A DNA stretch of 36,957 nt from Candidatus Hadarchaeum sp. Lineage in GTDB: Archaea; Hadarchaeota; Hadarchaeia; Hadarchaeales; Hadarchaeaceae. Made by a program: the position numbers and the translations under genes. Below, one piece after another: positions 1 to 16,128 of the stretch (positions are counted from its first letter, which is position 1; every line of letters starts with the position of its first letter). The stretch lies in the NCBI RefSeq assembly GCF_038871235.1, contig NZ_JAVZIN010000012.1, positions 1-36,957 of the forward strand. Direction: 5' to 3'. Below the pieces are notes generated by a model, which made no database searches, was not told the DNA's origin, and saw nothing but the letters and a program-made list of their open reading frames with translations.

Positions 1-363
1 GCCTTAAAAGTTTTTTTGGTTAGCGATTTTACGTGATTTAAACGGGCTGATATCTATTATAAAAAGTCTAAAAAACTTTTATTTTTTAATTTAGGGCAAA
101 TATAACATTTTTTATTGATATTACAGCAATATAAAAGTTAATTATTTGTACAATTGGTAAATTTGCGGAAATTAAGTATTAATTAGGTCCTCAACTTCAG
201 GTAGTTTGATAGCGCTTCTGCTGATCGATTGTGTCTTCGGCATATTTAGTCGACAAAATCATATAATCGCGAGAAGTGAAATAATCCCAAACCGCGAACC
301 GAGTGCGGTGATGTGGGCAGGCTCCATATAATTTGGGTTGCTCAAACGGAAACCCGATTAAGA

Positions 364-1593
364 CTAGATTTTAATTATTTTTTTCTTTGAAGTACTCGCG
401 GCGATAATTTTTCCATTTTTTATTACATACAATCGAACGGGCTGAAAACGAAATGCATCTTTGATGTTATCCGCGTCAATAATCACGATATCTGCTGTTT
501 TGCCCGCCTGCAAACCATAATCCTGATATCTCATGGCTTTGGCCCCGTTCAAGGTGATCATGTCGTAAACTTTCTCCAACTCGGCAGGTGTACCCAGTTG
601 TGCCACGTGCGCCATGAGGAACCCCACCTCAAGCTGATCCATCTTCCCAAACGGATAATATGGATCGTTGACATCATCCTGCGCGGTGGCAACGTTGACG
701 CCTGCTTCTAAGAATTCTTTGACTCTAGTTATTCCTCGCCGGATGAGCCCAACGTCCCTCCTTCCATTTAACATGAGGCTGATGTGGGGGTTTGAAACTA
801 TCGTCATCTCAGCATCTCTCACCATTTGAATGACCCTAGCAGCGTGGCTGTTATCGTAGGCTGCCAAGGCCCCCGCGTGGCTTGCTGACACTCTTCCGAA
901 ATATTTTTTTTTTATCGCTTTATAGGCAAAATATTCGAGCGTCCTCGAGGTTGGGTCATCGGTATCATCAACCAGCATATGAATGTCCGCGCCAAACCTT
1001 TTGGCGATGTCAAACACGATATCAACATGCCTTTTTTGATCATCTCCAAACTCAATCCAAGGAATACCTCCAACAACGTCTGCCCCCAGCTCCATCGCTT
1101 GATAAAGTAGATCCTCTGTGCCTTCATCTTTGAGTATCCCCTCTTGAGGAAAAGCAACCACCTGCAAATCAACATGGTTGGCTCGTTCCTTCTTAATTTC
1201 CAGCAAGGCCTTAACTGGATTTAGTCCGCCTATAGTATCGACATCCGCAAAGGCCCTAATCCTCGTGCATCCGTATACCACGGCAAGATCGACCACTTGA
1301 TTGGCTCTTTTTTTAATCTCCTGAACAGTGTATCTTTTCTTGTATTCCCAAGTTCTTCTTATCCCCCCTTCACAGGTATCGACATTACCGCCAACAGCGT
1401 CTCCAATTAATGACTTATCGAGGTGGACATGTAGATTCACAAACGCAGGAGTCGTCAAACGTTCGTCAACATTAATTTCCTTATCCGATCTTTTTTTTAT
1501 TTTTCCAGATATCTCAACAATCTTTCCGTCTTTTATGCCGATGTCCCTTACCTCGCCACTTCTCAACTTAGCTTTTCTCAGGATAAGATCCAG
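364..1593 (-). CDS. Cytosine/creatinine deaminase-like amidohydrolase (CodA family, divergent active site)
   Basis: HVHLDK metal motif, LQVVAFPQEG, ASHA, QDD, YYPFG. ORF track starts at 1614; a GGGGTGA Shine-Dalgarno at 1605-1599 favours a CTG start at 1593 (MDLILRKAKL) or a nearby codon. Confidence 0.85.
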   Translation of the reverse strand: MDLILRKAKLRSGEVRDIGIKDGKIVEISGKIKKRSDKEINVDERLTTPAFVNLHVHLDKSLIGDAVGGNVDTCEGGIRRTWEYKKRYTVQEIKKRANQVVDLAVVYGCTRIRAFADVDTIGGLNPVKALLEIKKERANHVDLQVVAFPQEGILKDEGTEDLLYQAMELGADVVGGIPWIEFGDDQKRHVDIVFDIAKRFGADIHMLVDDTDDPTSRTLEYFAYKAIKKKYFGRVSASHAGALAAYDNSHAARVIQMVRDAEMTIVSNPHISLMLNGRRDVGLIRRGITRVKEFLEAGVNVATAQDDVNDPYYPFGKMDQLEVGFLMAHVAQLGTPAELEKVYDMITLNGAKAMRYQDYGLQAGKTADIVIIDADNIKDAFRFQPVRLYVIKNGKIIAASTSKKKIIKI

Positions 1594-1844
1594 TGACTTC
1601 ACCCCAAAAGACAAACAAGCTACTATCAGTATGATGGTAATAAAATATTTTGTTTGGACGTGTTGTTGTATTTAAAAACCTAATTTTAAGCCCTCAAGAT
1701 GTCATGAAAATAGTCAAAGTTTTCTCACCTACTTAAAATTTTCTCAATATCTTCATAAAAATCGAGATTAACTCAAGAAAATAGAACAATCAAGAGCTAA
1801 AACTTATAAGAGCTGCACATACCATCTCTTATGGAGGTCAAAAA

Positions 1845-2672
1845 ATGGTTGACAGGTTGCTTGAGTTGTTCGAAGAAAAAAGGGTGAAGATGTACGACCT
1901 ATCCCAGCCTCTTGGAATTCACACGCCATTTTGGCCCTACTACCCACCTTTTGAGGTAAAATACTTCAAACGTAAACCAGAACACGGTGTGAACGCTCAA
2001 TACATTCAAAGTTCACTACACATCGGCACACATCTCGACGCGCCAAGGCATTTCCTCACCGGAGGTAAGACCATCGACCAGCTGCCACTCGAGTGGCTTT
2101 GTGGACCCGGAGTTGTGGTTGACCTTACCGACGAAATGGACGACTTAGCCATTTACACCCCAGAGATGATCGAGAAGCGAGTGGATGTACATGAGGGAGA
2201 TATTCTCATCCTCCACACTGGATGGGAGAAATATGCTTGGTGCGGATCCCAGCCAGATGAAGAACGCTACATCCACTTACACCCTGGAGCCGACAGACGG
2301 ATGGTCGACTGGCTAATCAAAAAGAAAATTCACGTCTGGGGTATGGACTGTGTCTCCACCGACCACCCGATGAATCTCCCGATAGGACGATTCCTCGGAA
2401 AAGGCACTTTCGGCCAATGTGAAAGGGTCCGCGCGCTAGCTGAAAAGAAGTTCGGAGGCAAGGAAGCCGTTGACAAGCTCTTCCCGCAAGAGGACTATCA
2501 GCTGACCCACAACAAACTGTTCCCACATGACTGCATCCACCTAGAGAACCTCGGCGGTCAGATCAGTGCCCCAGAGATCCAAAACAAGAGGCTTGTGATC
2601 AGCTGCTTCCCGTGGCTATTCGAAGGCGGTGAATCGGCTTGGTGCCGGGTCGTTGCCTTTCTCTCCGAGTAA
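1845..2672 (+). CDS. Cyclase family / kynurenine formamidase-like metal-dependent hydrolase
   Basis: Signature HIGTHLDAPRHF (HxGTHxDxPxH), GDILILHTGW, C-terminal HLENL; GGAGG RBS before ATG. Confidence 0.9.
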   Translation: MVDRLLELFEEKRVKMYDLSQPLGIHTPFWPYYPPFEVKYFKRKPEHGVNAQYIQSSLHIGTHLDAPRHFLTGGKTIDQLPLEWLCGPGVVVDLTDEMDDLAIYTPEMIEKRVDVHEGDILILHTGWEKYAWCGSQPDEERYIHLHPGADRRMVDWLIKKKIHVWGMDCVSTDHPMNLPIGRFLGKGTFGQCERVRALAEKKFGGKEAVDKLFPQEDYQLTHNKLFPHDCIHLENLGGQISAPEIQNKRLVISCFPWLFEGGESAWCRVVAFLSE

Positions 2673-2708
2673 AAGCCCCGCAAAAATAACGCGGGGTATT
2701 TATTTTTT
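2672..2708. terminator. Hairpin between convergent genes, probable bidirectional terminator
   Basis: CCCCGC (2676-2681) / GCGGGG (2691-2696) stem, A-run on the left and T-rich run on the right, between two stop codons. Confidence 0.6.
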
Positions 2709-3180
2709 AATCTTGACTTCTTTTCGCCGCATCCAATATCGCATCAATAATTTGTCTGTAACCCGTACATCTACAGAGCAGGCCGCCGATGGCCTCCTTC
2801 ACCTCTTCCTCGCTTGGATTCGGATTACGCCTAAGAAACGCTTCTGCGGTTAAAATAAAGGCCGGTGTACAAAAACCGCACTGTACGGCTCCATGCTCAA
2901 CAAAGGCGCGTTGGACGCGCGATAGTTTCTCTCCGCGCGCGATACCCTCGATGGTAGTTATTTCCTTTCCGTCAGCTTCGACTGCCAGCACCAAACAAGA
3001 TTTCATCGGCACTCCATTCACCAGCACCGTGCAGAGCCCGCAATCACCACGCTCACATGCCTGCTTGGTGCCCGTTAAACCGAGATCTTCCCGGAGCAAT
3101 TGAAGAAGAGTCCGATTGGCTTCGATTTCAACGCTATATGACTCGCCATTTACTTTTAGTGAAATACAGTGCTTCACCAT
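2707..3180 (-). CDS. Xanthine dehydrogenase family 2x[2Fe-2S] small subunit (CoxS/XdhC-like)
   Basis: GTKQACERGDCGLCTV..SC and QCGFCTP...LCRCTGY cysteine motifs. Confidence 0.95.
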   Translation of the reverse strand: MVKHCISLKVNGESYSVEIEANRTLLQLLREDLGLTGTKQACERGDCGLCTVLVNGVPMKSCLVLAVEADGKEITTIEGIARGEKLSRVQRAFVEHGAVQCGFCTPAFILTAEAFLRRNPNPSEEEVKEAIGGLLCRCTGYRQIIDAILDAAKRSQD

Positions 3181-4034
3181 CAGCCCACTCCCCAGAGTTG
3201 CCTAAGAACTCTTTTAGTAAGCACTTCAGCCATGTGCACCCGATATTCTTTGCTGGCCCTAACGTCTGAGATGGGTGAAATCTTTCCGGCGACGATCGAT
3301 GCAGCTTTGTTTATTTGCTCCGCCAATGTGCCACCTTTCCAGAAAACTTCCTCTACTTCAGGAATGAGAAGCGGCGTGGGCGCAACCGAGGACAGAGCGA
3401 TACGCACCATCTTTTGATCGGGATTAACCAGTCCGGCGACCCCAACCACTGCCAGATCCTCGCCTCGTGTGCGACCCCACTTGAGATAACAGCTCATGGA
3501 TCCTTCCGGAGGATTAGGTACCCGTACGGCCTTAACTAGGTCACCGGGTCTGAGCGAAGTGCGCTTGACTCCAACAAAAAAGTCCTTGACAGGGATAACG
3601 CGTTCCCCAGCGCTATTCGCGACCTCAACCTCGGCACCGTGAACCAGCAGCGCTGGTGCGGTATCGGAGGCTGGAGAAGCGTTACAGATGTTTCCGACGA
3701 GTGTGGCGCGGTTCCTCAGTATCGGATCCCCCAAGGACCTCGAGGCATCCCAAAGTGCCCCAAATCGTTCCTTGACAACATTGGATTCAACCAACTGATT
3801 CAGGACAACGGCCGCCCCAATTCTGAGCCCATTTTCCCCATGAGATATCTCGCGCAACTCCCCAATGCCCTTAACGTCGATTAAATACCTTGGCCTGATT
3901 GCCCTGTCCCTCATCAGAACTAAAAGATCTGTCCCACCAGCGAGTACCCTTGCTTCACCATCGTGCTCGGCAAGCATACCAACTGCTTCCTGAACCGTTT
4001 TGGGTTTGAGATAATCAAATTTGGGCAGCGGCAA
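3180..4034 (-). CDS. Xanthine dehydrogenase family FAD-binding medium subunit (CoxM/XdhB-like)
   Basis: LAGGTDL, RNRATLVGNICNASPASD, DVRASKEYR; TTG start after GAGGTGA; no [4Fe-4S] insertion evident. Confidence 0.95.
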   Translation of the reverse strand: MPLPKFDYLKPKTVQEAVGMLAEHDGEARVLAGGTDLLVLMRDRAIRPRYLIDVKGIGELREISHGENGLRIGAAVVLNQLVESNVVKERFGALWDASRSLGDPILRNRATLVGNICNASPASDTAPALLVHGAEVEVANSAGERVIPVKDFFVGVKRTSLRPGDLVKAVRVPNPPEGSMSCYLKWGRTRGEDLAVVGVAGLVNPDQKMVRIALSSVAPTPLLIPEVEEVFWKGGTLAEQINKAASIVAGKISPISDVRASKEYRVHMAEVLTKRVLRQLWGVG

Positions 4035-4035
4035 C

Positions 4036-6366
4036 TCACTTCACCTCAGACTTTTTAAGCGCCTTCCACACTTTCTCCTTGGTCATCGGAAGTTCATAGA
4101 TATCAACTCCTGTGGCATTGTAAATCGCGTTGGCTATCGCGGGCTGCAGGGATATGGTCGGATGCTCGCCTATCCCCCTCGCCCCATAGGGACCATTACT
4201 TTGAGGATTTTCAATCATGATTGGCACAAACTCATCCGGAATGTCAGGTGCTCGCGGTATCTTGTAGTCGGTGAGGTTATTGTTCAGCAGAGCCCCCTTT
4301 TCATCGAATATATAGTCCTCGAATAGCGCCTGTCCTAGCGCCTGAACGACTCCTCCACATATCTGACCTTTAAGAAGTAATGGATTCAGAGCTTTCCCAA
4401 GGTCCAATGCGGTGGCTACCTTGAGTACCCTCACTTCACCGGTTTCGGGATCAACCTCAACCTCAACTCCCTGTGCCCCGAAGGTCCACACAAGCGCCGG
4501 CAACCCTTGTCCAGTCTCCGGATCCAAGTTTGTCAATCCCTCAGCGGTGTAATATCCATAACCAACTATCGGGCCCCGAATACCCCTGCCGTCGGGCAGC
4601 ACGCCGCAAGTCGCAACCGCAGCAAGCGTCAAGCCCCTCTCAGGCTCCCTTCCTACGAAAACCCGGCCATCGGCTATCTCCAGCGAATCCTCTGGCATCC
4701 CGAGCAACTGCGCGGCCGTGGCTTTTACTTGGCGTTTTAGGTCCTTTAATGCCTGCAAAACTGCATTGCCATCCATAAAAGTACCGCGACTTGCCACCGT
4801 CTGCCACGAGTAAGGGGAATAATCCGTTTCCCGCTTGCTGACGACTTTGATCCTGTCCACCGGCATCTGAAGTTCTTCCGCCGCCATCTGAACAAAAACC
4901 GTCGGGGTGCCTTGCCCCATTTCAATCAATCCAATCGAAAGAGTAACCGTCCCGTCTTCGTTTAGCTTGGCGATTGCGGAAGACGAAGCAAAGGACGGCA
5001 TCGCCGGAGCTTTCCAGAGCGCCGCAATTCCCTTTCCTCGCAGTTTTCCGTTTATCTGTCTTGGCTCCTTTCTTCCCCAACCTATTGCCTCGGCAACTGC
5101 TTTTATGCATTGATCGACCCGCCCGGCATCGTCTCGAAGTTTTTCACCGGAAGCAGTAATACGTCCAGGCAAAGCGGCATTCTTAAGACGAAATTCTACT
5201 GGGTCCATCCCAATCTTACGGGCCACCATATCCATCTGACGTTCAATGGCCCACAGTAGCTCTGGACAGCCAAACCCACGATAAGCGGTTCCATAGGGAT
5301 GATTTGTGTAGACGGTATAACTATCACACTTCACATTGGGAACTTCATAAGGGCCGGTGCAAGAATAGCCAGCGGCGCGCCCAATGTTTACGGCGTAGTC
5401 AGCATAGGCCCCAGTATCCCAGATATACTCGATCTCTTCGGCCGTTATCTTACCGTCCCGCTTGACACCGGTTTTTATGCGAGCATACATTCCCTGACGA
5501 ACAGCCACGGTGCGGAATTGCTCCTCGCGGCTCATCACCAACTTTACGGGTCTCCCTCCCGCTTTTCGAGAAAGCAGCACAACTAGAGGCTCCCAGTGAA
5601 GCCCAGCCTTTCCACCAAATCCTCCTCCAACATAGGGCACATGCACATTAATTTTGTGGATGGGCACACCTAGGCCAACGCTTAGCAGATGTCGAACGGC
5701 AAAAGGGGACTGGGCGCTTGTCCAGACATTTATCTGCCCGTTGGGAAGCCACTGCCCGATCGAGGTGTGGGTCTCCATCTGCACGTGGTGAACTTGGGGT
5801 TGGTAGAATTCATTTTCGACGATAAAGTCAGCCTCAGCAAAACCTCTTTCCACATCTCCTTTACGGAGCTTGAAATGGCTAGCGATGTTGGTGTGAGGTT
5901 TAGGAAAAATATATGGGGCGTGTTTGTACTCATGAAGATTTTCATGCACCAGAGGGGCACCTTCTTTCATCGCCTCACGCTGATCAAAAACAGCGGGCAG
6001 CTCCTCATACCGTACTTTTATCAACTCTAAAGCCTCTTCGGCTATCTCCTCGGTATCGGCGGCTACGGCGGCTACGGGCTCTCCGACGTGTCTGACCTTA
6101 TCAACGGCCAAGACCGTCTTGTCGCTCAGGTAAATACCAAAATGATACTTGGCTTCACTACCGGTAATTACGGCTCGAACGCCCGGTAAATTTTCAACCC
6201 CTGAAATATCGATTCCAACTATTCTAGCATGTGCATGTGGGCTCTTCAAAATTTTAGCGTGAAGCATCCCTGGCAAACGTATGTCTCCTGTGTATACTGC
6301 TGAACCAGCAACCTTTTCAACCGCATCAACACGCTCAACATCACGACCCAAATAGGAGTACTTCAT
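4036..6366 (-). CDS. Xanthine dehydrogenase family molybdopterin-binding large subunit
   Basis: GGGFGGK, AYRGFG, EMGQG, VASRGT, GQICGG, GARGIGE (catalytic Glu). The form I CODH motif AYRCSFR is absent. Confidence 0.95.
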   Translation of the reverse strand: MKYSYLGRDVERVDAVEKVAGSAVYTGDIRLPGMLHAKILKSPHAHARIVGIDISGVENLPGVRAVITGSEAKYHFGIYLSDKTVLAVDKVRHVGEPVAAVAADTEEIAEEALELIKVRYEELPAVFDQREAMKEGAPLVHENLHEYKHAPYIFPKPHTNIASHFKLRKGDVERGFAEADFIVENEFYQPQVHHVQMETHTSIGQWLPNGQINVWTSAQSPFAVRHLLSVGLGVPIHKINVHVPYVGGGFGGKAGLHWEPLVVLLSRKAGGRPVKLVMSREEQFRTVAVRQGMYARIKTGVKRDGKITAEEIEYIWDTGAYADYAVNIGRAAGYSCTGPYEVPNVKCDSYTVYTNHPYGTAYRGFGCPELLWAIERQMDMVARKIGMDPVEFRLKNAALPGRITASGEKLRDDAGRVDQCIKAVAEAIGWGRKEPRQINGKLRGKGIAALWKAPAMPSFASSSAIAKLNEDGTVTLSIGLIEMGQGTPTVFVQMAAEELQMPVDRIKVVSKRETDYSPYSWQTVASRGTFMDGNAVLQALKDLKRQVKATAAQLLGMPEDSLEIADGRVFVGREPERGLTLAAVATCGVLPDGRGIRGPIVGYGYYTAEGLTNLDPETGQGLPALVWTFGAQGVEVEVDPETGEVRVLKVATALDLGKALNPLLLKGQICGGVVQALGQALFEDYIFDEKGALLNNNLTDYKIPRAPDIPDEFVPIMIENPQSNGPYGARGIGEHPTISLQPAIANAIYNATGVDIYELPMTKEKVWKALKKSEVK

Positions 6367-6403
6367 GTACTCACAAACAATATCAAAAAAATAACTTAAA
6401 AAG

Positions 6404-6643
6404 TTATCTAAGGCCCCCGCCTACCAGTGGAACGAGCACTATTTCGTCTCCGTCCTTAACGGGACTGTTTTCATCCACAGGCGTCCCGTTTAAATATATC
6501 AAAGCAATGGAAGCCGGGTGGTACTTCAACGCCTCGAAAACATCAATCACTCTCATCCCTTCCCTGAAATCAAGCTCCGTCCACCCGCTTGCCGCGGCGA
6601 GCTGTACACGTATTACCAAACTAACCCCATAAATATCTAACAT
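6404..6643 (-). CDS. MoaD/ThiS/SAMP ubiquitin-like sulfur carrier with C-terminal extension
   Basis: LNG...VKDGDEIVLVPLVGGG beta-grasp C-terminus followed by LR; immediately upstream of the Mo-enzyme genes. Start uncertain. Confidence 0.8.
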   Translation of the reverse strand: MLDIYGVSLVIRVQLAAASGWTELDFREGMRVIDVFEALKYHPASIALIYLNGTPVDENSPVKDGDEIVLVPLVGGGLR

Positions 6644-6764
6644 TCTTTATTTATTCAATTGATTTTTATTGGTAAGGAGGGTTTAACCTAACACAATTTA
6701 AAGCGCTTTGAAAAGAGTCCGGAACATAAGCTCAGCGATGATTTTAAGCAACTTCAGCCGAAAG

Positions 6765-8555: not shown

Positions 8556-8775
8556 TTATTAAGCCGATCCAAGCATTCATCTCATTGCGATCAATCTCAA
8601 CATCCCGACACTTGCCTTAAAACCACTGAATTTTGGGGTTCCGCAGAGGATTTTGCCCACACCTAGACTGACGGCAGCTCAATTTTCAGCGAGTGTTGAG
8701 ACCGACACGTACTTTAAAATATATATCCGCCTTGAGTGAATTCTGGTGTTGAAACAATATCGGTGATGTGACAAC

Positions 8776-10080
8776 ATGGAAAATAAATTTAGAATAGAAA
8801 AGATTGTGGCTAGAGAAATTTTAGACTGCCGAGGTGACCCGACCGTTGAAGTGGACATCCTGACCAAAGGAGGTTCACTAGGAAGGGCTGACGTCCCTGT
8901 AGGAAGATCCACCGGAAAATATGAAGCATTCGAGCTCAGGGACGGAGGGAAAAGATATCGCGGAAGGGGGGTCTTAAAAGCTATAAAAAACATCAATGCG
9001 GTCATTGGCCCAAAGTTGATTGGAATGGATGTTACCAGGCAAAGGGAAATAGATGAACTATTGCTCAAACTTGATGGCACCAAGGACAAATCGAGACTGG
9101 GAGCCAACGCGATAGTGGGTGTCTCCTTAGCCGCTGCGAAGGCTGCCGCGCAAAGCCTAGGAATGCCCTTATATCAATACATTGGAGGACCAAACGCCCG
9201 GATCCTACCGGTCCCTTTCCTGAACCTCATAAACGGGGGCAAACTCGCTGCAACCGAACTCGATTTCCAAGAACACATCGTAGTGCCAACGGGTGCCAAG
9301 ACTTTTTCGGAGGCGATCAGGATGGGCACCGAGGTTTATCACGAACTCGGGAGGATATTGGAGAAGAAGTGGGGAAGGCACTCATTGAATGTCGCCGACG
9401 AAGGCGGTTATACCCCTCCAGGCATGAACGACGTCAGGCAGGCTTTCGATGAGGAATTAAGGGCAATAGAAGAACTCGGCTACACGGATAAGTTTGCGCT
9501 CGCCTTAGATGTCGCCGCAAGTCACCTCTATGACAGGAAGGGGGGAGTTTACTTGATAAAGGGGAAAAAGATGACTAGGGAGGATTTAATTGATTTTTAC
9601 AAGGAACTGGTAAAAACATACCCTGTTGCGTCCATCGAGGATCCCTTGGAGCAAAACGACTTTGATGGCTTTGCGGAACTGACCAAGGAGCTGGGAATTC
9701 AAATAGTAGGAGATGATCTCTTTGTGACCAACGCGGAGCGACTGGGGAAGGGGATAGAATGCGGGGCCGCAAATGCTCTACTCTGGAAGGTAAACCAAGT
9801 AGGAACGCTAACTGAGGCTTTGGATGTGGCTAAGCTTGCCTTTGATAATGGCTACGGTGTCCAAGTCTCCGAGCGATCCGGGCAGACCGAGGACACGTGG
9901 CTGGCGGATATGGCGGTCGCTTTGAACTGCGGGCAGATAAAAACCGGCGCTCCGTGCAGAAGCGAGAGAACTGCCCAATATAACCAGCTGCTTAGAATAG
10001 AGGAGGAACTTGGCGCATCCGCAAAATACGCGGGTAAGAACTTCAGACGCGCGCGATTAAAAATTAAACAACAACAATAA
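8776..10080 (+). CDS. Enolase-family protein (divergent paralog)
   Basis: AREILDCRGDPTVEV, STGKYEAFELRD, DEGG, LDVAAS, IEDP, VGDDLFVTN, KVNQVGT, QIKTGAPCRSER; two conserved His positions substituted (see findings). Confidence 0.92.
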   Translation: MENKFRIEKIVAREILDCRGDPTVEVDILTKGGSLGRADVPVGRSTGKYEAFELRDGGKRYRGRGVLKAIKNINAVIGPKLIGMDVTRQREIDELLLKLDGTKDKSRLGANAIVGVSLAAAKAAAQSLGMPLYQYIGGPNARILPVPFLNLINGGKLAATELDFQEHIVVPTGAKTFSEAIRMGTEVYHELGRILEKKWGRHSLNVADEGGYTPPGMNDVRQAFDEELRAIEELGYTDKFALALDVAASHLYDRKGGVYLIKGKKMTREDLIDFYKELVKTYPVASIEDPLEQNDFDGFAELTKELGIQIVGDDLFVTNAERLGKGIECGAANALLWKVNQVGTLTEALDVAKLAFDNGYGVQVSERSGQTEDTWLADMAVALNCGQIKTGAPCRSERTAQYNQLLRIEEELGASAKYAGKNFRRARLKIKQQQ

Positions 10081-11431
10081 CGATGAGGTCCATCACGTTC
10101 GTCCCGGTAGGCCCAGTTATAATAGCATCTTTTAATCTTTTCATCAGCTTGCCCGTGTTGTGCCTCCTTATCTCCACCGACACGTCCATGCCCAGCTCCC
10201 TTGCTCTCTCGACGGAATATCCGTCCGCCATGCCTCCGGCAACTTCTGTTAGTCCGTCCGTTCCATCCGTATTTACCGCTGCGATTGCTATTCTCCTGTT
10301 CCCAGCTATTTTTGTGGAAAAAGCGGCGGCTAATTCTTGATTTCGCCCGCCCTCGCCTGCCTTGCCCTCGATAGTAACGGTCGTCTCCCCGCCAGCTATA
10401 AGGACACATGGAGGATTAAGGGGCCTTCCATACTTCTCCACCTCTTTTGCTATGCCTGCCAAGACGAAACCGACATCCTTGCTCTCTCCTTCCAAGACCG
10501 TGGAGAGAATCTGGGAATTTAATCCTATTTCCTCCGCCCTTTCCTTAGCGGCTTCGCATGCAGTTTTGATATCCGCCAATAGAAAATTATGAAATTTAAC
10601 CTCCTTGAAGCTCTCAGGCTTGGGTGTTTCCATCTTAAGATCCGACCTTTTAAGGTGGTCCCTTACCGAGGTAGGGACCTTATCCCACAATCCATACTTT
10701 CTCAAAACGTGGATGGCATCGTCAAATGTAGATGTATCCGGCACCGTCGGGCCCCACGGCAAACCAGCTACCTCATCCACCACGATTAAGTTTATGATCT
10801 CGGCCGGATGAGCTCGCAAAGCAAGCCTTCCTCCCTTTATTGCAGAAATGTGGTTCCGGACGGCATTTATTTCATCTATCGTGGCCCCGCTCCTGAGAAG
10901 CAATTCCGTGGTTCTCGCTTTGTCCTCCAAACTTACGCCCTCAACTGGCAAGGGCATCAAAGCAGAGCAACCCCCAGCCACACAGAAGAAAACCAGATCG
11001 TTTTTCTCCCTGCTCTTTAAAGCGTCCCAAATCTCCTTTGCGCCTTTCCAACCCGCCCGATCGGGTACAGGGTGTCTGGATCTTAGGACTCTGATTCTGC
11101 CTAACCTGCTTTCTCTCTCATTTTTTATCCTTTTTTCTATTATGATTCCCTCTTTGATCCTCATCCCAAGCACATCATTTAATGCCTTGGCTATGTGCAG
11201 AGTCCCCTTTCCGGCACCCATCACAAAGATATCTCCAACTTTTGAAAGATCGTAACTCAAATCGCCCACGAATAGCTTCCCACCGTGGACACGAACCAGC
11301 TTTTTCACTATATTATAGCTATCCAATTTTTTCAGGGCATGCTCGACTATGTCTAGGGCTATTTTCCTACCTTTTTTGTTTCCATGGGAAAGTAACTGTT
11401 TTCTATTTTTTACCAGCATGGCACCAATCAT
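10064..11431 (-). CDS. Glycerate 2-kinase (GckA/TtuD, MOFRL domain) family protein, divergent
   Basis: GAGKG, HPVPD, GGCSAL, SGATIDEINAVRNHISAIKGGRLA, GGETTV, GGRNQE, TDGTDG, TGPTGTNVMD. Overlaps the enolase 3' end by 17 bp. Confidence 0.9.
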   Translation of the reverse strand: MIGAMLVKNRKQLLSHGNKKGRKIALDIVEHALKKLDSYNIVKKLVRVHGGKLFVGDLSYDLSKVGDIFVMGAGKGTLHIAKALNDVLGMRIKEGIIIEKRIKNERESRLGRIRVLRSRHPVPDRAGWKGAKEIWDALKSREKNDLVFFCVAGGCSALMPLPVEGVSLEDKARTTELLLRSGATIDEINAVRNHISAIKGGRLALRAHPAEIINLIVVDEVAGLPWGPTVPDTSTFDDAIHVLRKYGLWDKVPTSVRDHLKRSDLKMETPKPESFKEVKFHNFLLADIKTACEAAKERAEEIGLNSQILSTVLEGESKDVGFVLAGIAKEVEKYGRPLNPPCVLIAGGETTVTIEGKAGEGGRNQELAAAFSTKIAGNRRIAIAAVNTDGTDGLTEVAGGMADGYSVERARELGMDVSVEIRRHNTGKLMKRLKDAIITGPTGTNVMDLIVIVVV

Positions 11432-11567
11432 CTGTTAATCCCAGGATTATTTACGATTACTGAGGTTCAGCCTTTTCAAATTGAGTTTGAGAAAAATTAA
11501 CAATTTACAGCCATGCTAAAATCAACAATTAAAAATAGAGAAACATTAGTTAAACAGGAGGTTCACA

Positions 11568-12959
11568 TTGGATTTGGTTATTAAAAATTGTAAAATAGCT
11601 TCTTCCCGGGGTTTGTGGGAATGCGGGCTTGGCATAGACGATGGTAAGATAGTATCAATTTCCAAGGACCACCTCCTGCCCGCCGCCGATAGGGTAATAA
11701 ATTGCAATGGAAGGATAATCCTCCCTGGTGGAATCGATTTTCACGTGCATTTCCAAGACCCGGGATACACGTACAGAGAGGACTGGAAAACAGGGACGGG
11801 ATCAGCGGCCGCTGGTGGTACGACATTGGTCGTCGACCACGGCAACACCAATCCACCATCGACCACTCCGAAAAATTTAATGCGGATAATTAAAACCGCT
11901 GAAAGAAAGGCGATCGTCGACTTTGGTATCAATGGCGCTGTCACGTCAAAGAACTTAAACCATCTGCCAAAACTAGCCGCCAAGGGTGTAATGGCATTTG
12001 GCGAAATTTATATGGCCGAGTCTGTTCCTGAGCTTGAGAGGGTTGAAGACGGTATCCTGCTCGAAGCCTTTAAAATAATTGGCAAAATGGGATGCATCGC
12101 CGGCGTACATGCGGAAAACTGGGAAATTGTTTCCCACTTTACACAAAAACTCAAGCAAGCCAAAAGAAAAGATCCCCTCGCCCACTGTGAATCTAGGCCG
12201 GATATTGCAGAGGCAGAGGCCATATCTAGAGCGCTACTCTTTGGACGAGAGACTGGCGTTCGCCTCCATATTTTCCACCTAAGCACCGGACTCGGGACTA
12301 ATATTTTGCGGCAAGCGAGGTCCCTCGGGCAGGATGTAAGCGCCGAAGTTCTTCCTCAGCATCTCCTTTTCAGACAAGCAGATATGAAGAAACTAGGACC
12401 TTACCTGAAATGCAACCCGCCCATAAGAAGCGAAGCAAATAGAGTTGCTCTGTGGGAAGGATTGAAAACTGGTGTGATAGAGATGGTTTCGAGTGACCAT
12501 TGGCCAATGCCACTCTCCGAGGTTGAAGCCGGGTGGGAGGATATTTGGAAAGCAGGTTCAGGAATAGCTGGTGTCGAGACAAGATTACCGCTCCTACTGA
12601 CCTACGGGGTGAAAAAAAATTTAATTTCAATGGAAAAATTTGTCAGGATAACTTCCGAGAACCCGGCCCGCAAGCTGGGCCTTTACCCAAGGAAGGGATC
12701 AATAAGTATAGGAGCAGATGCTGATTTGACTATTGTCGACATGAAGAAAAAAGTTAAAATAAAGATAGATAACTTGCGCACGAAGGCGGGTTACACGCCC
12801 TTCGAAAATTGGACTGTTGTCGGTATACCATGGTTAACGTTGGTGCGTGGTGAAATCGTGTTTGAGGAAGGGGAAATCGTGGCTAAACCGGGGCATGGTA
12901 GGTACATTCAACGTGACTACGGAAAGAAGGAGGAACATGGTGCCAGCAAAAAAATCTGA
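11568..12959 (+). CDS. Cyclic amidohydrolase (dihydroorotase/allantoinase/dihydropyrimidinase superfamily)
   Basis: LPGGIDFHVH, AAAGGTT, VHAEN, HIFHLST, KCNPPIR, SSDH, NPARKLGLYPRKG, GADAD; TTG start after GGAGG. Confidence 0.9.
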   Translation: MDLVIKNCKIASSRGLWECGLGIDDGKIVSISKDHLLPAADRVINCNGRIILPGGIDFHVHFQDPGYTYREDWKTGTGSAAAGGTTLVVDHGNTNPPSTTPKNLMRIIKTAERKAIVDFGINGAVTSKNLNHLPKLAAKGVMAFGEIYMAESVPELERVEDGILLEAFKIIGKMGCIAGVHAENWEIVSHFTQKLKQAKRKDPLAHCESRPDIAEAEAISRALLFGRETGVRLHIFHLSTGLGTNILRQARSLGQDVSAEVLPQHLLFRQADMKKLGPYLKCNPPIRSEANRVALWEGLKTGVIEMVSSDHWPMPLSEVEAGWEDIWKAGSGIAGVETRLPLLLTYGVKKNLISMEKFVRITSENPARKLGLYPRKGSISIGADADLTIVDMKKKVKIKIDNLRTKAGYTPFENWTVVGIPWLTLVRGEIVFEEGEIVAKPGHGRYIQRDYGKKEEHGASKKI

Positions 12960-13647
12960 GTTCGAAAAACTGCTCAGACTCATGAGCCGACAGGGTACCA
13001 TCCGTCACTTTAAACCAGATCCAGTTCCGGACAAACTCATAGAGAAAATACTTGAGGCCGCTAGGTGGGCCCCCTCAGGCGCCAACACACAGCCATGGGA
13101 CTTCATCGTGGTGAAGGACCCGAGAGCAAGGGAGAAAATCGCTCAAATTTTCGTTGAGACCTACGAGCGGGCTAAAAAATTGGACAGGAGATTCCCCTTC
13201 TACAGCGGTGAGGTGTTACGGAAGAGGCTCACCGAACCACCCATTCTCATCGTGGTTTGTGCCGACACGCGATTCACGAGTGCTTATCCCAATACCATCT
13301 ATAGGGAAGAGATTCTAGATGTCAGCATGGGGGCGGCCATTCAAAACATGACCTTGGCGGCAAGTGCTCTCGGGTTGGGGCTTGGCTGGGGTACCGCAAA
13401 CTTCCCCTTGACCAGAAAGAGGCTCAGGCAACTGTTAGGAGTCCCATCGTACATCAAGATAATGGAGGTTCTTCAGCTCGGCTTCCCAGTCAAGCGGGTC
13501 CCGCCGCGTTTCAGACGACCCATAAGTGAATTCACGCACCACAATAGGTTCGATGTCTCAAAGATCAGGAGCGAGGAGGAGATCGAAAACTTGCTGAGGA
13601 CAAGGAAAGTCCCTGACATCTATTCAGGCACTAAATTGCCGAAGTGA
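12937..13647 (+). CDS. Nitroreductase family flavoprotein
   Basis: IRHFKPDPV, ARWAPSGANTQPWDFIVV, AIQNMTLAASALGLG; true start ATG 12937 after GGAGG (ORF track extends to 12847). Confidence 0.9.
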   Translation: MVPAKKSEFEKLLRLMSRQGTIRHFKPDPVPDKLIEKILEAARWAPSGANTQPWDFIVVKDPRAREKIAQIFVETYERAKKLDRRFPFYSGEVLRKRLTEPPILIVVCADTRFTSAYPNTIYREEILDVSMGAAIQNMTLAASALGLGLGWGTANFPLTRKRLRQLLGVPSYIKIMEVLQLGFPVKRVPPRFRRPISEFTHHNRFDVSKIRSEEEIENLLRTRKVPDIYSGTKLPK

Positions 13648-13651
13648 TAAG

Positions 13652-14872
13652 ATGAGGGACCCAATTAATGTAAAAAAAGTTGATCTCTCGGTGAAATTTT
13701 GTGGGCTTGAATTTGAAAACCCGTTTATCCTCTCATCGGGGCCGCCAACGAGTAATGCTGAGAAAATAGGGCGAGCCTTTGAAGCTGGCTGGGCCGGCGC
13801 CGTCACGAAAGTTTTGGGTTCAAAACCGCGGCCGGACCCCCATCCACGGATAGCAGGCCTACATTACGGGGGGAAGTTAATTGCGATTGAAAATATAGAA
13901 TCGGTAATTTATCCCTTAAAGGAATGGTTACCCAAGATCACTGAACTCAAGAAAAAATATCCGGAAAAGATCTTGATACCAAACCTCATGGGTGGAGCAG
14001 ACCCGGAGATCTGGCAAGGAATGATCAAAGACGTCCAAGAAGCAGGAGCGGATATGATCGAGCTCAACTTATCCTGCCCGCTGACGGATGAAGTCTGGGC
14101 TGTTGGAGCAATATTGGGCCAGAACCCCGACCTAACGCGCGAGGCCACGAGGTTGGCCAAGGAGGTCGCGACCGTTCCGATAATGGTAAAGCTCACTCCA
14201 AATGTGACAGATATAACTTTAATAGCAAAAGCGGCAGAGCGTGGAGGAGCTGACGCCATCTCAGCTATTAACACCGTTCAGGGGCTCATAGGAATAGACC
14301 TTGAAAACATGGAGCCACTACCTTCCGTGAGAGGGATATCCTCGTTCGGCGGAATCTCAGGACCAGCAATCAAGCCCATCTCCCTCAGATGCGTGGCGCA
14401 AATAGCAAAGACAACAAAGCTACCTATTTCAGGGATCGGCGGCATCTCTAAATGGGAAGATGCGGTTGAGTTTTTCATGGTGGGCGCCTCCACCGTTCAG
14501 CTCTGTACCTCTGTGATGCTGCGTGGAAATAGGATGATAAACGAGCTCAAAGATGGTGTTTCCTCCTATCTTTATAAAAAGGGATTCGGATCCGTAAAGG
14601 AAATCGTGGGGTGCATCCTGTCCAAGCTAAAGAGCCAAGAAAATCTGGACTATTCTTATTGGGTGCTTCCAGCAGTTGATGCAGCCAGATGTACCAAATG
14701 TGAATTGTGCCGGGTTGCATGCCAAGACGCGGGTTATGCCGCCATTAAAATCGAGGGTGATCTGCCTAAGATTGATGAAGAAAAATGCAATGCCTGCGGC
14801 CTCTGTATCCAAGTTTGCCCACATGGAGCTTTACTCTTAAAACCGAGTTTGTCGAATAAATCCAACAAATAA
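13652..14872 (+). CDS. preA: Dihydropyrimidine dehydrogenase PreA-like subunit (FMN barrel + 2x[4Fe-4S]); C-terminus altered by IS insertion
   Basis: NPFILSSGPPT, GWAGAVTK, NIE, ELNLSCP (catalytic Cys), KLTPNVTDI, AINT, GGISGPAIKP, CxxCxxCxxxC twice. Confidence 0.85.
   Translation: MRDPINVKKVDLSVKFCGLEFENPFILSSGPPTSNAEKIGRAFEAGWAGAVTKVLGSKPRPDPHPRIAGLHYGGKLIAIENIESVIYPLKEWLPKITELKKKYPEKILIPNLMGGADPEIWQGMIKDVQEAGADMIELNLSCPLTDEVWAVGAILGQNPDLTREATRLAKEVATVPIMVKLTPNVTDITLIAKAAERGGADAISAINTVQGLIGIDLENMEPLPSVRGISSFGGISGPAIKPISLRCVAQIAKTTKLPISGIGGISKWEDAVEFFMVGASTVQLCTSVMLRGNRMINELKDGVSSYLYKKGFGSVKEIVGCILSKLKSQENLDYSYWVLPAVDAARCTKCELCRVACQDAGYAAIKIEGDLPKIDEEKCNACGLCIQVCPHGALLLKPSLSNKSNK
14836..14844 (+). 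repeat. Target site duplication, left copy (CTTAAAACC)
   Basis: Identical to 15878-15886 and directly abutting the IR. Confidence 0.95.
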
Positions 14873-15772: not shown

Positions 15773-15877
15773 ATGGATGTACCTCCTATTGGTTCACCCT
15801 AAGCTACTCGGCGCAGCCTCCGCAACAATAGGAGTATTGCCGTCGGCAATTAAAAATTAGAATTATTCGACAAACTC
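14845..15877 (-). mobile_element. Complete insertion sequence, IS5-like (DDE_Tnp_1), 1033 bp
   Basis: Perfect 15-bp terminal IRs GAGTTTGTCGAATAA (14845-14859) / TTATTCGACAAACTC (15863-15877); 9-bp direct repeat CTTAAAACC at 14836-14844 and 15878-15886; visibly more GC-rich than the flanks. Confidence 0.95.
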
Positions 15878-15886
15878 CTTAAAACC
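15878..15886 (+). repeat. Target site duplication, right copy (CTTAAAACC)
   Basis: Identical to 14836-14844 and directly abutting the IR. Confidence 0.95.
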
Positions 15887-16072: not shown

Positions 16073-16100
16073 GAAGAAAACCTTTAATTTTTCAATCATC

Positions 16101-16108: not shown

Positions 16109-16128
16109 TAGACGCAAATACTGATGTT

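Follow-up and report, generated by a model that had tools for sequence, protein, structure and literature searches.

A probable mosaic of independently inherited N-heterocycle enzyme modules in a Hadarchaeota genome

The bacterial gene clusters described by Li et al. combine an XDH homologue with a YgfK or PydA-like UacX reductase, SsnA, and HyuA. Here we examine a 14.5 kb locus (positions 364-14872) in a Hadarchaeota genome; the window analyzed, the whole stretch of DNA, has 36,957 nucleotides. The locus probably brings together five or more modules that were inherited independently, in a genuine arrangement specific to this lineage; each is most likely a short route acting on N-heterocyclic or derived substrates.

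Genes and genomic setting

The source genome (G000; 1,205,095 bases, 94.75% complete) is a 1.2-Mb hot-spring Hadarchaeota genome rich in paralogues of the families found in the window: five XDH-type large subunits, five DHOase/hydantoinase-type genes, seven DHO_dh/PreA-type genes, eight SsnA-like amidohydrolases (157-388 bits), and two genes each of the ade, CodA, and cyclase types. A preliminary description had named families of N-heterocycle and nucleobase catabolism across the locus (Table 1), encoded by full-length ORFs; we find those families there, agree on their general role, and see every ORF intact. Values of dN/dS for dht, preA, ntr, xdhL, and xdhM (0.06-0.12; housekeeping sua5, 0.07-0.14) indicate purifying selection. 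The genes alternate in strand and make up at least six transcription units, not one operon. Elsewhere the window encodes housekeeping proteins, among them Sua5, SepRS, TYW1, and endonuclease V.

Table 1. Features of the locus, its bounding insertion, and a related gene group on contig C5
Feature	Position	Strand	Family evidence or remark
cdaL, CodA-like amidohydrolase	364..1614	-	Pfam Amidohydro_3, 2.9e-38
Cyclase-family (KynB / isatin-hydrolase-like) metallohydrolase	1845..2672	+	PF04199, 2.7e-38
xdhS, 2x[2Fe-2S] small subunit	2707..3180	-	Fer2_2 and Fer2 domains
xdhM, FAD subunit	3180..4034	-	FAD_binding_5 and CO_deh_flav_C domains
xdhL, Moco subunit	4036..6366	-	Ald_Xan_dh_C, MoCoBD_1, and MoCoBD_2 domains
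ThiS/MoaD-like beta-grasp ORF, 79 aa, ending ...GGGLR	6404..6643	-	Directly upstream of xdhL
ade2, adenine-deaminase-family variant	6708..8555	+	TIGR01178, 542.4 (cut-off 472.5)
eno2, LE-type enolase	8776..10080	+	TIGR01060, 559.1 (cut-off 300)
gck, MOFRL/DUF4147 kinase (class II glycerate 2-kinase family)	10064..11431	-	DUF4147 and MOFRL domains
dht, hydantoinase/DHOase-like cyclic amidohydrolase, GE-type	11568..12959	+	Top solved relative L-hydantoinase 1gkr, 351.9 bits
ntr, nitroreductase-family (BluB-like)	12937..13647	+	PF00881, 1.6e-32
preA, stand-alone PreA/PydAc-like FMN reductase	13652..14872	+	PRK08318, 445.9 (cut-off 335); DHO_dh and Fer4 domains
IS5-family insertion	14836..15877		Bounds the cluster; transposase ORF 14837-15772 (- strand), DDE_Tnp_1 domain, IS5 family
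C5 triad: dht paralogue, SsnA-like amidohydrolase, PreA paralogue	G000:C5:33.3-37.4 kb		Conserved; adjoins the maturation genes for XdhC and MocA

The insertion at the edge of the cluster shows inverted ends and a 9-bp duplication, and has replaced the final three codons of preA. Contigs of runs X4 and X5 lack this IS5 copy, joining 14835 directly to 15878 and skipping 1042 bases.

Residue variants and partners of the individual modules

The subunits of the XDH operon score below the cut-offs of the named families: xdhL against XdhA_XDHase (592.6 bits, cut-off 780) and 4-HBCR alpha (585.5, cut-off 994.55), xdhM against XdhB (205.9, cut-off 310), while xdhS reaches no NCBIfam equivalog, the top one being the glyceraldehyde dehydrogenase gamma subunit (198.1 bits, cut-off 290). 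The nearest solved structure for xdhL is the alpha subunit of 4-hydroxybenzoyl-CoA reductase (1rm6, 400 bits). Its clade takes in Hadarchaeota, Asgard archaea, MAGs labelled Thermococci, and some bacteria; the motifs are GGKA, a retained Arg, RGFG, and GIGE, and the clade differs from the bovine enzyme in having no xanthine-binding Glu at the E802 column. The preliminary description gave this enzyme its own MoaD. A small beta-grasp ORF does lie upstream of xdhL, but the label is weak, with scores of 36.7 bits for ThiS NF006231 (cut-off 80) and 23.6 for moaD_arch (cut-off 49.5). By tblastn, a ThiS-like ORF precedes xdhL in 3 of 12 Hadarchaeota loci with upstream flank, and five Asgard loci have a ThiS-family ORF at the same place (PF02597 1.9e-6, tested in L030).

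The cyclase falls short of arylformamidase TIGR03035 (58.4, cut-off 223) and retains the HxGTHxDxPxH motif when aligned to 4co9. Orthologues of xdhL (72-92% identity) occur in 11 of the 40 related genomes, as do those of the cyclase (74-95%), which lies 0-8 kb downstream of xdhS in six of nine Hadarchaeota loci with at least 1 kb of flank. Around xdhL in 13 Hadarchaeota loci, tblastn finds only xdhLMS, the cyclase, and sometimes the ThiS-like ORF, apart from three exceptions that are distant paralogues (34-43% identity): preA-like (L021), ntr-like (L019, L031), and cdaL-like (L038). A tie between the XDH operon and genes of the window other than the cyclase, as had been proposed, is not seen elsewhere in Hadarchaeota, where xdhL is flanked by genes for XdhC, MocA, TFX, and topoisomerase IB, all of which in G000 are on contig C5.

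The CodA-like protein scores 350.9 bits against PRK07572, under the cut-off of 438. Aligned to CodA (3o7u/1k6w), it retains the HxH motif, Q156, H246, and D313/D314, but its motif H-x-L-x-D-D replaces the H214-x-D-E217 of E. coli CodA, so that the H214 column is occupied by Leu and that of E217 by Asp. All of its 120 best database homologues share the Leu; the His two positions before it is seen in 114 of them, and the Asp in 115. The variant is present in Moorella and Deltaproteobacteria. Among the 40 relatives, cdaL reaches 45-53% identity at best, in six. In G020 (locus L038) a cdaL-like gene adjoins xdhL and in G018 one lies on the xdhL contig, which hints at a wider link between XDH and CodA-like modules.

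Alignment of ade2 to 3nqb shows the HxH motif, bridging Glu, D-H-E, and Asp retained, with Ser at the His column of "vcgHa", WEPLW for DPHE, and APDVHH for SHDSHN; as judged from these columns, the protein lacks one His of the binuclear site as well as the third-metal site. At the "vcgHa" column, 130 of 150 family representatives have His and five have Ser. The sole orthologue among the 40 relatives (G013, 72% identity) carries identical changes and neighbours an ABC ATPase and a Bmp/PnrA-type binding protein; the G000 paralogue on contig C2 keeps the His.

In dht, every NCBIfam equivalog scores under its cut-off. Compared with 1gkr, the HxH motif, both further His residues, and Asp are retained, and Gly stands at the column of the carbamylated Lys (Gly-Glu replacing Lys). 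The motif FGEIYM is common to the orthologues of G001, G006, and G011, F-G-E is found in the 22 top-ranked of 120 database homologues (53-100% identity), and the four G000 paralogues read F-K. In the reductase preA, the catalytic Cys of DPD is retained, as are the Asn and Lys residues that bind substrate and both C-terminal [4Fe-4S] motifs. Its orthologues (82-95% identity) occur only in the same three of the 40 relatives, always with dht beside them; dht plus preA at 82% identity or more is found in 3 of 40, and one of the three, G011, has no XDH-family match. G006 and G001 share the collinear order dht-ntr-preA-sua5, with no window genes upstream. The dht-preA operon is itself mosaic, because dht is nearest to G011 (94%) and preA to G001 (95%). 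The nitroreductase, whose listed ORF begins at 12847 and whose likelier start is the ATG at 12937, scores 100.1 against BluB (cut-off 150). It had been taken for a partner of PreA, yet only one of the three orthologous loci, that of G006, has it intact; G011 carries a frameshifted copy and in G001 the gene is deleted, and it is thus dispensable in relatives.

The strongest new piece is a single enolase clade that lacks both active-site histidines, tied to a MOFRL kinase neighbour. Aligned to the M. jannaschii enolase 2pa6, eno2 has Leu and Glu at these two positions, as does its G038 orthologue; among 120 homologues the Leu is found in 118 and the Glu in 119, and the LE-type enolases form one clade (SH-aLRT 100). 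The kinase scores 237.3 against GlyK_Thmprot (cut-off 550) and 340.6 bits against PH0495 (1x3l). Only one of the 40 relatives, G038, has both genes, there also adjacent; the pair is found in Bathyarchaeia and Aigarchaeota-type contigs as well. The kinase lies beside an LE-type enolase in 12 of 19 metagenome loci (the seven without it have an upstream flank of 470 bp or less) and beside a canonical enolase in none of 61. In L075, L077, and L078 an M20 amidohydrolase gene separates kinase and enolase, and L069 has one close by.

The preliminary description counted six enzymes with altered residues; we see changes at catalytic or metal-binding positions in five (cdaL, ade2, dht, eno2, xdhL); preA and the cyclase keep canonical motifs. 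The substitutions are not private to this genome, being carried by orthologues and whole subfamilies, and each variant subfamily occurs in lineages without the other modules. The odd residues mark established subfamilies and are maintained by purifying selection; they were not coordinated within the cluster.

Competing readings of the juxtaposition

The preliminary description proposed a single dedicated, undescribed pathway for a non-canonical base, for example a C5-oxygenated pyrimidine or a purine-derived intermediate. The base would be deaminated and hydroxylated or reduced, its ring would be opened and its amide bonds hydrolysed to yield a C3 acid, and kinase and enolase would turn this acid into PEP, the active-site changes having co-evolved. 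Compatible families within 14.5 kb, intact ORFs under purifying selection, and the M20 amidohydrolase, which would suit a de-carbamoylation or de-acylation feeding the kinase, speak for it, as does the failure to find canonical end enzymes in the genome (YgeX at most 22.9 bits against 274, Gcl 394.3 against 711.2, YgeY 139.1 against 321.5). We nevertheless consider it improbable; a flow from base to PEP may still exist in this one genome. Conserved co-occurrence had been set beforehand as the test, and the full set occurs in none of the 40 relatives (all of the order Hadarchaeales, many genomes incomplete); only sub-modules recur, with unrelated distributions. Within about 8 kb around the 19 LE-type enolase loci, tblastn finds no dht, preA, XDH, ade, or cdaL homologue. 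The variant residues are older than the cluster and turn up where its other members are lacking, relatives show ntr in decay, and the locus has six or more transcription units and an IS at its edge. That the genes are housekeeping ones adjacent by chance (adenine salvage, glycolytic enolase, PyrC, PyrD, a generic aldehyde oxidoreductase) is highly improbable. Three NCBIfam equivalogs do name window genes this way (ade, eno, and PreA, all above cut-off), and other parts of the window encode housekeeping proteins. However, a canonical enolase is encoded separately (on contig C4 in G000, and in all 40 relatives, thus in 41 of 41 genomes) and eno2 in two; separate dht-type and PyrD-type paralogues in the genome have canonical residues; the window copies are patchy and altered; and the kinase-enolase and dht-preA neighbourships recur elsewhere. 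The separate enolase, the kinase-enolase linkage, and the canonical-residue paralogues largely refute this reading.

It is also unlikely that XDH and the cyclase are the entry to an archaeal reductive purine (urate / 2,8-dioxopurine) pathway, with the C5 triad reducing and opening the ring and the other window genes accessory. The published bacterial clusters combine enzymes of these kinds, and the best SsnA-like match of the genome (G000:C5:35000-36316, 387.9 bits) lies between dht and preA paralogues, with XdhC and MocA within 1 kb; these two flank this same XDH in other Hadarchaeota (L018, L020, L022). In 17 of 41 genomes a single contig has dht and preA as a divergent pair, 1.6-2.8 kb apart (the gap gene was examined in G000). 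Against this, the SsnA match falls short of its family cut-off (455.5), as do the YgeX and YgeY matches of theirs, the carbamate kinase lies amid arginine-type genes (OTC, class-III aminotransferase, amino-acid kinase), G011, G014, and G021 carry the dht/preA pair but no XDH-family match, and the triad is absent from the fetched xdhL flanks of L020, L022, and L026.

A mosaic remains our preferred reading, with sub-modules that recur and differ in distribution: xdhLMS with the cyclase, dht with preA, MOFRL kinase with enolase, and the adenine-deaminase variant. Each module is most likely its own single-step or two-step route, substrates and order of steps being taken from family chemistry alone. 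The ThiS-like ORF, xdhLMS, and the convergent cyclase would carry out ring hydroxylation and then amide hydrolysis; the CodA-like protein and the adenine-deaminase variant, as separate modules, hydrolytic deamination; the MOFRL kinase would phosphorylate a 2-hydroxy acid, from which the LE-type enolase would form an enol phosphate by beta-elimination; and dht-(ntr)-preA would reduce and then open a ring, the stand-alone reductase presumably taking electrons from ferredoxin. The closest relative, G001 (xdhL 92%, preA 95%), is 71% complete and fragmented, and therefore an arrangement conserved at genus level may exist.

Comparison with described pathways

Four of the five modules are nucleobase-type and lie within 14.5 kb; modules recruited to form a functioning catabolic island would give the same picture. 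Missing synteny in other genera does not disprove cooperation of the enzymes in G000. Parts of the window are similar to both the reductive urate pathway and the ferredoxin-type reductive pyrimidine pathway, but no gene in G000 reaches the cut-offs of the marker enzymes SsnA, YgeX, and YgeY. The likeness is to the PydAc/PydB and UacX/HyuA pairs in the case of the dht-preA module, where reduction would likewise be followed by ring opening.

Gene layout and distribution among relatives

The stretch 364-14872 of the window is probably a mosaic of independently conserved modules drawn from atypical enzyme subfamilies. All genes named in the preliminary description are found, and found intact, between positions 364 and 14872 (table), on alternating strands and therefore in at least six transcription units. 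The kinase gene gck and the enolase gene eno2 are convergent, with a 17-base overlap, and the likeliest start codon of the nitroreductase gene ntr is the ATG at 12937. The host genome (G000) comprises 1,205,095 bases in 16 contigs at 94.75% completeness, the window being contig C12, and the public sequencing runs that contain the stretch are labelled hot springs metagenome. A contig of run X3 (record 13) bridges the thiS/ade junction, and contigs of run X2 bridge enolase/kinase (record 5) and kinase/dht (record 6); the latter count as weak independent support because X2 and the possible source run share one study. GC and GC3 of every cluster gene deviate by less than 1.5 SD from the ORFs of the genome (the lowest is cdaL, z -1.4), a base composition that neither favours recent transfer nor argues against it.

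Features of the window, with positions on the forward strand of the contig
Feature	Position	Strand	Remarks
cdaL (CodA-like)	364-1614	-	
cyclase (PF04199)	1845-2672	+	
xdhS, xdhM, xdhL and 79-aa ThiS/MoaD-like ORF	2707-6643	-	
ade2 (adenine-deaminase family)	6708-8555	+	
eno2 (enolase)	8776-10080	+	
gck (MOFRL kinase)	10064-11431	-	
dht-ntr-preA	11568-14872	+	
IS5-family element	14836-15877		1042 bp; inverted ends, 9-bp target duplication
tRNA match	16129-16237	+	109 nt; Rfam, 44.5 bits
DUF835 / 7TM-sensor protein	17733-18995		downstream of sua5
LigD primase-polymerase domain and winged helix protein	19082-20161		downstream of sua5

The IS5 element sits at the extreme 3' end of preA, where the last three PreA residues are replaced by eight others, and is missing from contigs of runs X4 and X5. 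The Rfam tRNA match is probably intron-bearing; ARAGORN calls no tRNA in 1-18000, this match included. A depth spike marks the same region in all four sequencing runs compared. SepRS is also encoded in the window.

Each window protein was searched in 40 relatives, of which 7 share the genus, a further 17 the family and 16 the order; relatives matched through the xdhL and dht proteins carry the titles Hadarchaeota, Hadesarchaea or Candidatus Hadarchaeum. The synteny tables leave out tblastn rows that span less than 30-40% of the query, and since many of the 40 genomes are incomplete, a missing gene is to be read as "not found" and not as "absent". Orthologues of xdhL (at least 72% identity) and of the cyclase (at least 74%) each occur in 11 of the 40, best matches to cdaL at 45-53% identity in six, and dht and preA (at least 82%) in three, G001, G006 and G011. 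The ade variant has a single orthologue, in G013 (72% identity), and the window-type enolase also has one, in G038 (64%), adjoining the only relative of gck at 50% identity or more. Only G001 combines xdhL with dht/preA and only G013 combines xdhL with the ade variant, while G011, which has dht-preA, gives no XDH-family match at all. The full gene set is found in none of the 40 relatives, and the discordance among module distributions hangs on no single genome.

The preliminary description had read the cluster as a candidate undescribed nucleobase/N-heterocycle pathway with coordinated active-site rewiring, carrying a non-canonical base by way of a C3 acid to PEP. The co-occurrence test that it proposed itself gives this no support, with the set in 0 of 40 relatives, and a single pathway is improbable and would have to be a recent recruitment specific to this genome. 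The altered residues hold up in five enzymes (cdaL, ade, dht, the enolase and xdhL), with columns read from printed alignments of each enzyme to its best solved relative. They prove to be subfamily-wide and so not private to this genome; coordinated they are not, since each occurs without the other modules. The unusual residues are old, selected traits of their subfamilies. Measured against relatives, dN/dS is 0.06-0.12 for dht, preA, ntr, xdhL and xdhM, and 0.07-0.14 for sua5.

The kinase-enolase pair

The best-supported unusual piece of the window is the pair formed by gck and the Leu/Glu enolase. Compared with the M. jannaschii enolase 2pa6, eno2 keeps the Mg ligands (D/E/D), the catalytic Lys and Glu, and the motifs K-x-N-Q, D-E-G-G and I-K-T-G, and its TIGR01060 score of 559.1 exceeds the cut-off of 300. 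Neither of the two active-site His is present: Leu and Glu stand in their places across the clade, at columns that we take to be H159 and H373 of the yeast enzyme, and in addition a mobile-loop Ala is Arg and the Glu after the second site is Gln. The G038 orthologue carries the same changes. Among the 120 best database homologues, 118 have the Leu and 119 the Glu, those with names being phosphopyruvate hydratases of Bathyarchaeia or Nitrososphaerota/Aigarchaeota. The Leu/Glu enolases form one clade (SH-aLRT 100) in a treekit quick tree of 83 rows, in which two long branches, L060 and L059, are unreliable. Because a separate ordinary enolase is encoded in both G000 and G038, the Leu/Glu type is the housekeeping enzyme in neither genome.

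The ordinary enolase of the host, L060 (G000:C4:29803-31080), is the family-wide Hadarchaeales form; it keeps both His, is highly divergent (42-46% identity to eno2) and has the longest branch of the tree. A "1 TGA" flag raised the possibility that this gene is broken, which we reject: the reading frame runs uninterrupted for 425 aa, and the flag reflects read-through past the stop.

A metagenome scan with eno2 gives 80 loci, 19 of the Leu/Glu type and 61 of the ordinary type. A MOFRL kinase (48-59% identity) is the immediate upstream neighbour in 12 of the 19 and in none of the 61. The other seven Leu/Glu loci have upstream flanks of at most 470 bases, and one of them, L079, has part of a kinase gene at the end of its contig, too short to pass the coverage filter of the synteny tables. 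Two of the loci, L069 and L071, look like one sequence filed twice, so that the independent kinase-enolase count is 11. An ordinary enolase lies about 1.5 kb away in three Leu/Glu loci (two if L069/L071 is counted once), an M20 hydrolase separates kinase and enolase in three, and a GlcD/GlcF-like pair follows them in two. Homologues of dht, preA, XDH, ade and cdaL are found by tblastn within about 8 kb of none of the 19. The kinase itself has the DUF4147 and MOFRL domains, with equivalog scores of 237.3 and 157.8 against cut-offs of 550 and 670.

A bolder reading, which we hold to be improbable, joins these pieces into a new two-step route, made up of LE-type enolase (the Leu/Glu form) and MOFRL kinase, within an archaeal N-heterocycle fermentation ending in PEP. 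On that reading the enolase would not convert 2-phosphoglycerate to PEP; the kinase would act on another 2-hydroxy C3 acid, such as isoserine or some other compound released when ureides or hydantoins are cleaved, and the elimination catalysed next by the enolase would release a group other than water. The pair would have been recruited beside a Lys-less hydantoinase, a stand-alone PreA/PydAc-like ring reductase and a non-xanthine molybdenum hydroxylase. If it were true, the Hadarchaeota, with several paralogues per module in 1.2 Mb, would be specialist N-heterocycle fermenters. The parts most worth bench testing are the Lys-less hydantoinase/PreA pair and the kinase/Leu-Glu-enolase pair; since the His-less enolase has a conserved kinase partner, its function is directly testable.

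Other atypical subfamilies and their neighbourhoods

The best solved relative of the hydantoinase-like protein dht is the L-hydantoinase of Arthrobacter aurescens (1gkr; 351.9 bits over the full length), with HxH, His, His and Asp kept. Against both this enzyme and the D-hydantoinase 4tqt, the column of the carbamylated Lys holds Gly followed by Glu, and the other four ligands are kept; the Glu may bridge the metals. The substitution for the bridging Lys sets a dht clade (which includes Hadarchaeum, Aigarchaeota-labelled and MSBL1-labelled members) apart from 1gkr and other cyclic amidohydrolases. Gly-Glu is present in all three dht orthologues and in none of the four G000 paralogues. Among 120 database homologues the first 22 read F-G-E (53-100% identity; Hadarchaeum, Aigarchaeota or MSBL1 where named), and the next 18 rows examined read F-K.

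Alignment of preA to pig dihydropyrimidine dehydrogenase (DPD; 1gt8) shows all DPD columns checked to be kept, presumably with the roles of catalytic Cys and of pyrimidine-binding Asn and Lys, together with both [4Fe-4S] cluster motifs. The order dht-ntr-preA-sua5 is collinear in G006, recurs without ntr in G001, and is represented by dht-preA in G011; no other window genes lie upstream of dht-preA at these three loci. Of these three relatives, only G006 has an intact nitroreductase gene; in G011 the gene is broken across three frames, and in G001 it is deleted. Identity of dht is 94% to G011 (another genus) and 83% to G001, and that of preA is 85% to G011 and 95% to G001. The dht-preA operon is thus itself mosaic, each gene being closest to a different relative, and the discordant identities (to G011:C45 and G001:C70) suggest recombination or transfer among Hadarchaeota.

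The cdaL product keeps the HxH, Gln, second His and Asp-Asp of E. coli CodA, with Leu at the H214 column and Asp at the E217 column. Lacking the H214/E217 pair, it also scores below the cytosine deaminase cut-offs (PRK07572, 350.9 against 438; PRK09230, 303.9 against 483). The same pattern occurs in all 120 top homologues, including those of Moorella, Deltaproteobacteria and Solirubrobacteraceae. Plain loss of a metal ligand was considered; 114 of the 120 homologues share a His two positions upstream, and to judge from this column the ligand may equally well have shifted.

The second deaminase-family protein, ade2, scores above the adenine deaminase equivalog cut-off (TIGR01178, 542.4 against 472.5), and compared with 3nqb it has Ser at one His column and replacements of the two pairs (H-E and H-D) that form the third metal site, where we rely on assumed ligand and third-metal roles for these columns. 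It thus has neither the full binuclear ligand set nor the third-metal site of 3nqb. The Ser and both replaced pairs are shared with the G013 orthologue, which adjoins genes for an ABC ATPase and a Bmp/PnrA-type binding protein. Among 150 cluster representatives this column is Ser in 5 and His in 130.

The large XDH-type subunit xdhL reads GGKA, as do all 11 clade members aligned, where xanthine enzymes read GGKE; Arg, RGFG and GIGE are kept. Ala therefore occupies the column of the xanthine-specific substrate-binding Glu, presumably bovine E802. The clade keeps GIGE, with the catalytic Glu near the C-terminus, and N-I-x-R-A-A-G, whose Arg we take, on motif grounds and not from an alignment to the bovine enzyme, to be the R880 column. 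The FAD subunit xdhM has 284 aa, presumably too short for the extra Fe-S loop of the 4-hydroxybenzoyl-CoA reductase (4-HBCR) beta subunit. The residue after RGFG is Cys in the window and G001, Tyr in G004, and His in 6 other Hadarchaeota orthologues and in the aligned Hadarchaeota, Asgard, Thermococci-labelled and bacterial members of the clade. The ThiS/MoaD-like ORF scores under its family cut-offs and ends ...VGGGLR, two residues past the Gly run, and the cyclase has its N-terminal metal motif intact.

Comparison of 34 genome-contig loci around xdhL relatives, 13 of them from Hadarchaeota, finds xdhL-xdhM-xdhS alone common to all 13. A cyclase lies 0-8 kb downstream in six of the nine Hadarchaeota loci with at least 1 kb of flank, and a ThiS-like ORF lies upstream of xdhL in three of the 12 with flank. 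In Asgard loci (xdhL 49-53% identical) the gene again has a ThiS-family ORF upstream of it, but 2-oxoacid:ferredoxin oxidoreductase genes as neighbours, and no cyclase is found. Flanks of the Hadarchaeota loci match genes on another contig of the host, C5 (XdhC, a MobA-like nucleotidyltransferase, a TFX regulator and a eukaryote-type topoisomerase IB), and the G000 operon has therefore left its usual maturation-gene neighbourhood. In other Hadarchaeota the window-type XDH operon lies amid homologues of the C5 XdhC, MocA and TopoIB genes. In one bacterial MAG an AllH-like gene (L029:12337-13242; oxamate carbamoyltransferase subunit family) directly follows a same-clade xdhL of 56% identity, a possible purine/allantoin link for the clade outside archaea.

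The host archaeon invests heavily in enzymes of such families. G000 encodes five XDH-type large subunits, five dht-type and seven DHO_dh/PreA-type genes, two each of ade-type, CodA-type and cyclase genes, and eight SsnA-like amidohydrolases (157-388 bits, none over the cut-off). The locus G000:C5:33334-46500 (L061) holds, in order, a dht paralogue, the best TIGR03314 SsnA-like gene, a preA paralogue, XdhC, MobA-like and TFX genes, and continues with an SSB-like gene, the eukaryote-type topoisomerase IB, a nitroreductase and MoeA. In 17 of 41 genomes a divergent dht/preA pair, 1.6-2.8 kb apart, lies on one contig, the gap gene being identified in G000 only. G000:C6:49000-74000 (L062) carries four SsnA-like amidohydrolases, a cyclase paralogue, a molybdopterin (bis-PGD type) oxidoreductase with a ferredoxin subunit, DUF2284, a dht paralogue, an aldehyde:ferredoxin oxidoreductase with ferredoxin, a preA paralogue and a Bmp/PnrA-type binding protein. 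At 13.5-16 kb of C6 an M20 hydrolase gene adjoins another preA paralogue.

Significance and comparison with known systems

Hadarchaeota are uncultured archaea of the subsurface and hot springs. A sizeable part of this very small genome consists of XDH-type hydroxylases, PreA/PydAc-type ring reductases and many amidohydrolases, and should such enzymes prove to use nucleobases or other N-heterocycles, these archaea could draw on bases from necromass as a main substrate. They have been described as sugar and amino-acid heterotrophs or CO oxidisers (PMC10811742), and one preprint reads coxM and coxS of a Hadarchaeota MAG as CO-oxidation genes and mentions nucleoside uptake genes; some "cox" annotations may be heterocycle hydroxylases. 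Three conserved subfamilies go against textbook active-site rules: an enolase without either active-site His, a hydantoinase without the carbamylated Lys, and an adenine-deaminase relative without one metal ligand. In the literature searched, supplementary tables excluded, no report links Hadarchaeota or Hadesarchaea to xanthine dehydrogenase or dihydropyrimidine enzymes.

Among published systems, the resemblance is closest to the reductive urate (2,8-dioxopurine) clusters known from E. coli, C. difficile and C. sporogenes (Li et al. 10.1101/2025.05.19.654654; Liu et al. 10.1101/2025.04.24.650524), which comprise an XDH homologue, YgfK or the PydA-like UacX, SsnA, HyuA, YgeY, YgeW/YqeA or UacY, and YgeX (Li et al.). 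The network is described for bacteria, and the text consulted makes no mention of an archaeal version; supplementary tables of the two preprints may list archaeal homologues. The window shares with these clusters an anaerobic setting, an XDH homologue with FAD subunit, an FMN/Fe-S PydA-type reductase without FAD domain (UacX-like), and cyclic and other amidohydrolases, whereas its genes are not one conserved cluster. XDH-family domains are present and reach no XDH equivalog cut-off; preA has the YgfK/UacX make-up (PF01180, two 4Fe-4S motifs, no FAD domain). The urate-cluster marker SsnA (TIGR03314) is not found in the window, where the sole match is 20.3 bits at the ade N-terminus, and genome-wide the best score is 387.9 bits (C5:35000-36316) against a cut-off of 455.5. 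As a HyuA-type D-hydantoinase dht falls short in score (TIGR02033, 338.5 against 393.25) and in the Gly at its carbamylated-Lys column. Best G000 scores for YgeX diaminopropionate (DAP) ammonia-lyase (TIGR01747, 22.9 bits against 274) and the YgeY M20 hydrolase (TIGR03526, 139.1 against 321.5) are likewise below cut-off, and glyoxylate carboligase is matched in G000 by nothing but a generic TPP enzyme (394.3 bits against 711.2). A carbamate kinase over its cut-off lies at C3:24031-24984 beside OTC-type, class-III aminotransferase and amino-acid-kinase genes, an arginine-type setting. With the canonical end enzymes not found and the carbamate kinase among arginine-type genes, neither an allantoin-glyoxylate-glycerate nor a DAP-pyruvate route is assignable.

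The ferredoxin-dependent reductive pyrimidine pathway combines PydAc with PydB and PydC (Wang et al. 2020, PMC7332683). Like its reductase, preA joins a catalytic FMN domain, with the Cys, Asn and Lys of DPD, to two 4Fe-4S motifs (PRK08318, 445.9 against 335), has no FAD/NAD(P)H domain or PreT neighbour, and is paired with a cyclic amidohydrolase; the only PF14691 (GltD/PreT-type) protein of G000 (C6:92388-92720) lies far from every preA-type gene. The architecture of preA, as predicted from its domains, fits PydAc/UacX. Unlike PydB, dht is closest to L-hydantoinase, has the clade-conserved Gly-Glu in place of the carbamylated Lys and scores under the cut-offs, and unlike the PydAc pathway the dht-ntr-preA operon has an inserted nitroreductase gene, dispensable in relatives. 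Beta-ureidopropionase is not found in the window, and M20 genes lie elsewhere, at C6:13572-14780 and C16:6766-7989. Since the marker enzymes searched for are not found or stay below cut-off, the window modules are best described as new variants of familiar module types and as members of neither pathway.

The three XDH subunits share the Moco/FAD/2x[2Fe-2S] architecture of the XDH/4-HBCR family and differ from it in reaching no equivalog cut-off and in a link, confined to Hadarchaeota, to a cyclase-family hydrolase. For the kinase-enolase pair, the literature searched (enolase with glycerate 2-kinase, MOFRL, Bathyarchaeota and Bathyarchaeia) holds no description of such a gene pair, and where MOFRL and enolase are met together, enolase is a coupling enzyme only. 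The nearest known system is the lower non-phosphorylative Entner-Doudoroff branch, with its class II (MOFRL) glycerate 2-kinase and enolase. The gck product belongs to the same kinase family (PH0495, 340.6 bits), and the pair shares the chemical logic of the branch, from 2-hydroxy acid to 2-phospho ester to enol phosphate (Kehrer et al. 2007, PMC2063504). The pair departs from that branch in that gck falls under both cut-offs for archaeal class II glycerate 2-kinases, and in that eno2 falls in a clade of its own type, with Leu and Glu for the two active-site His, alongside a canonical enolase in the same genome.
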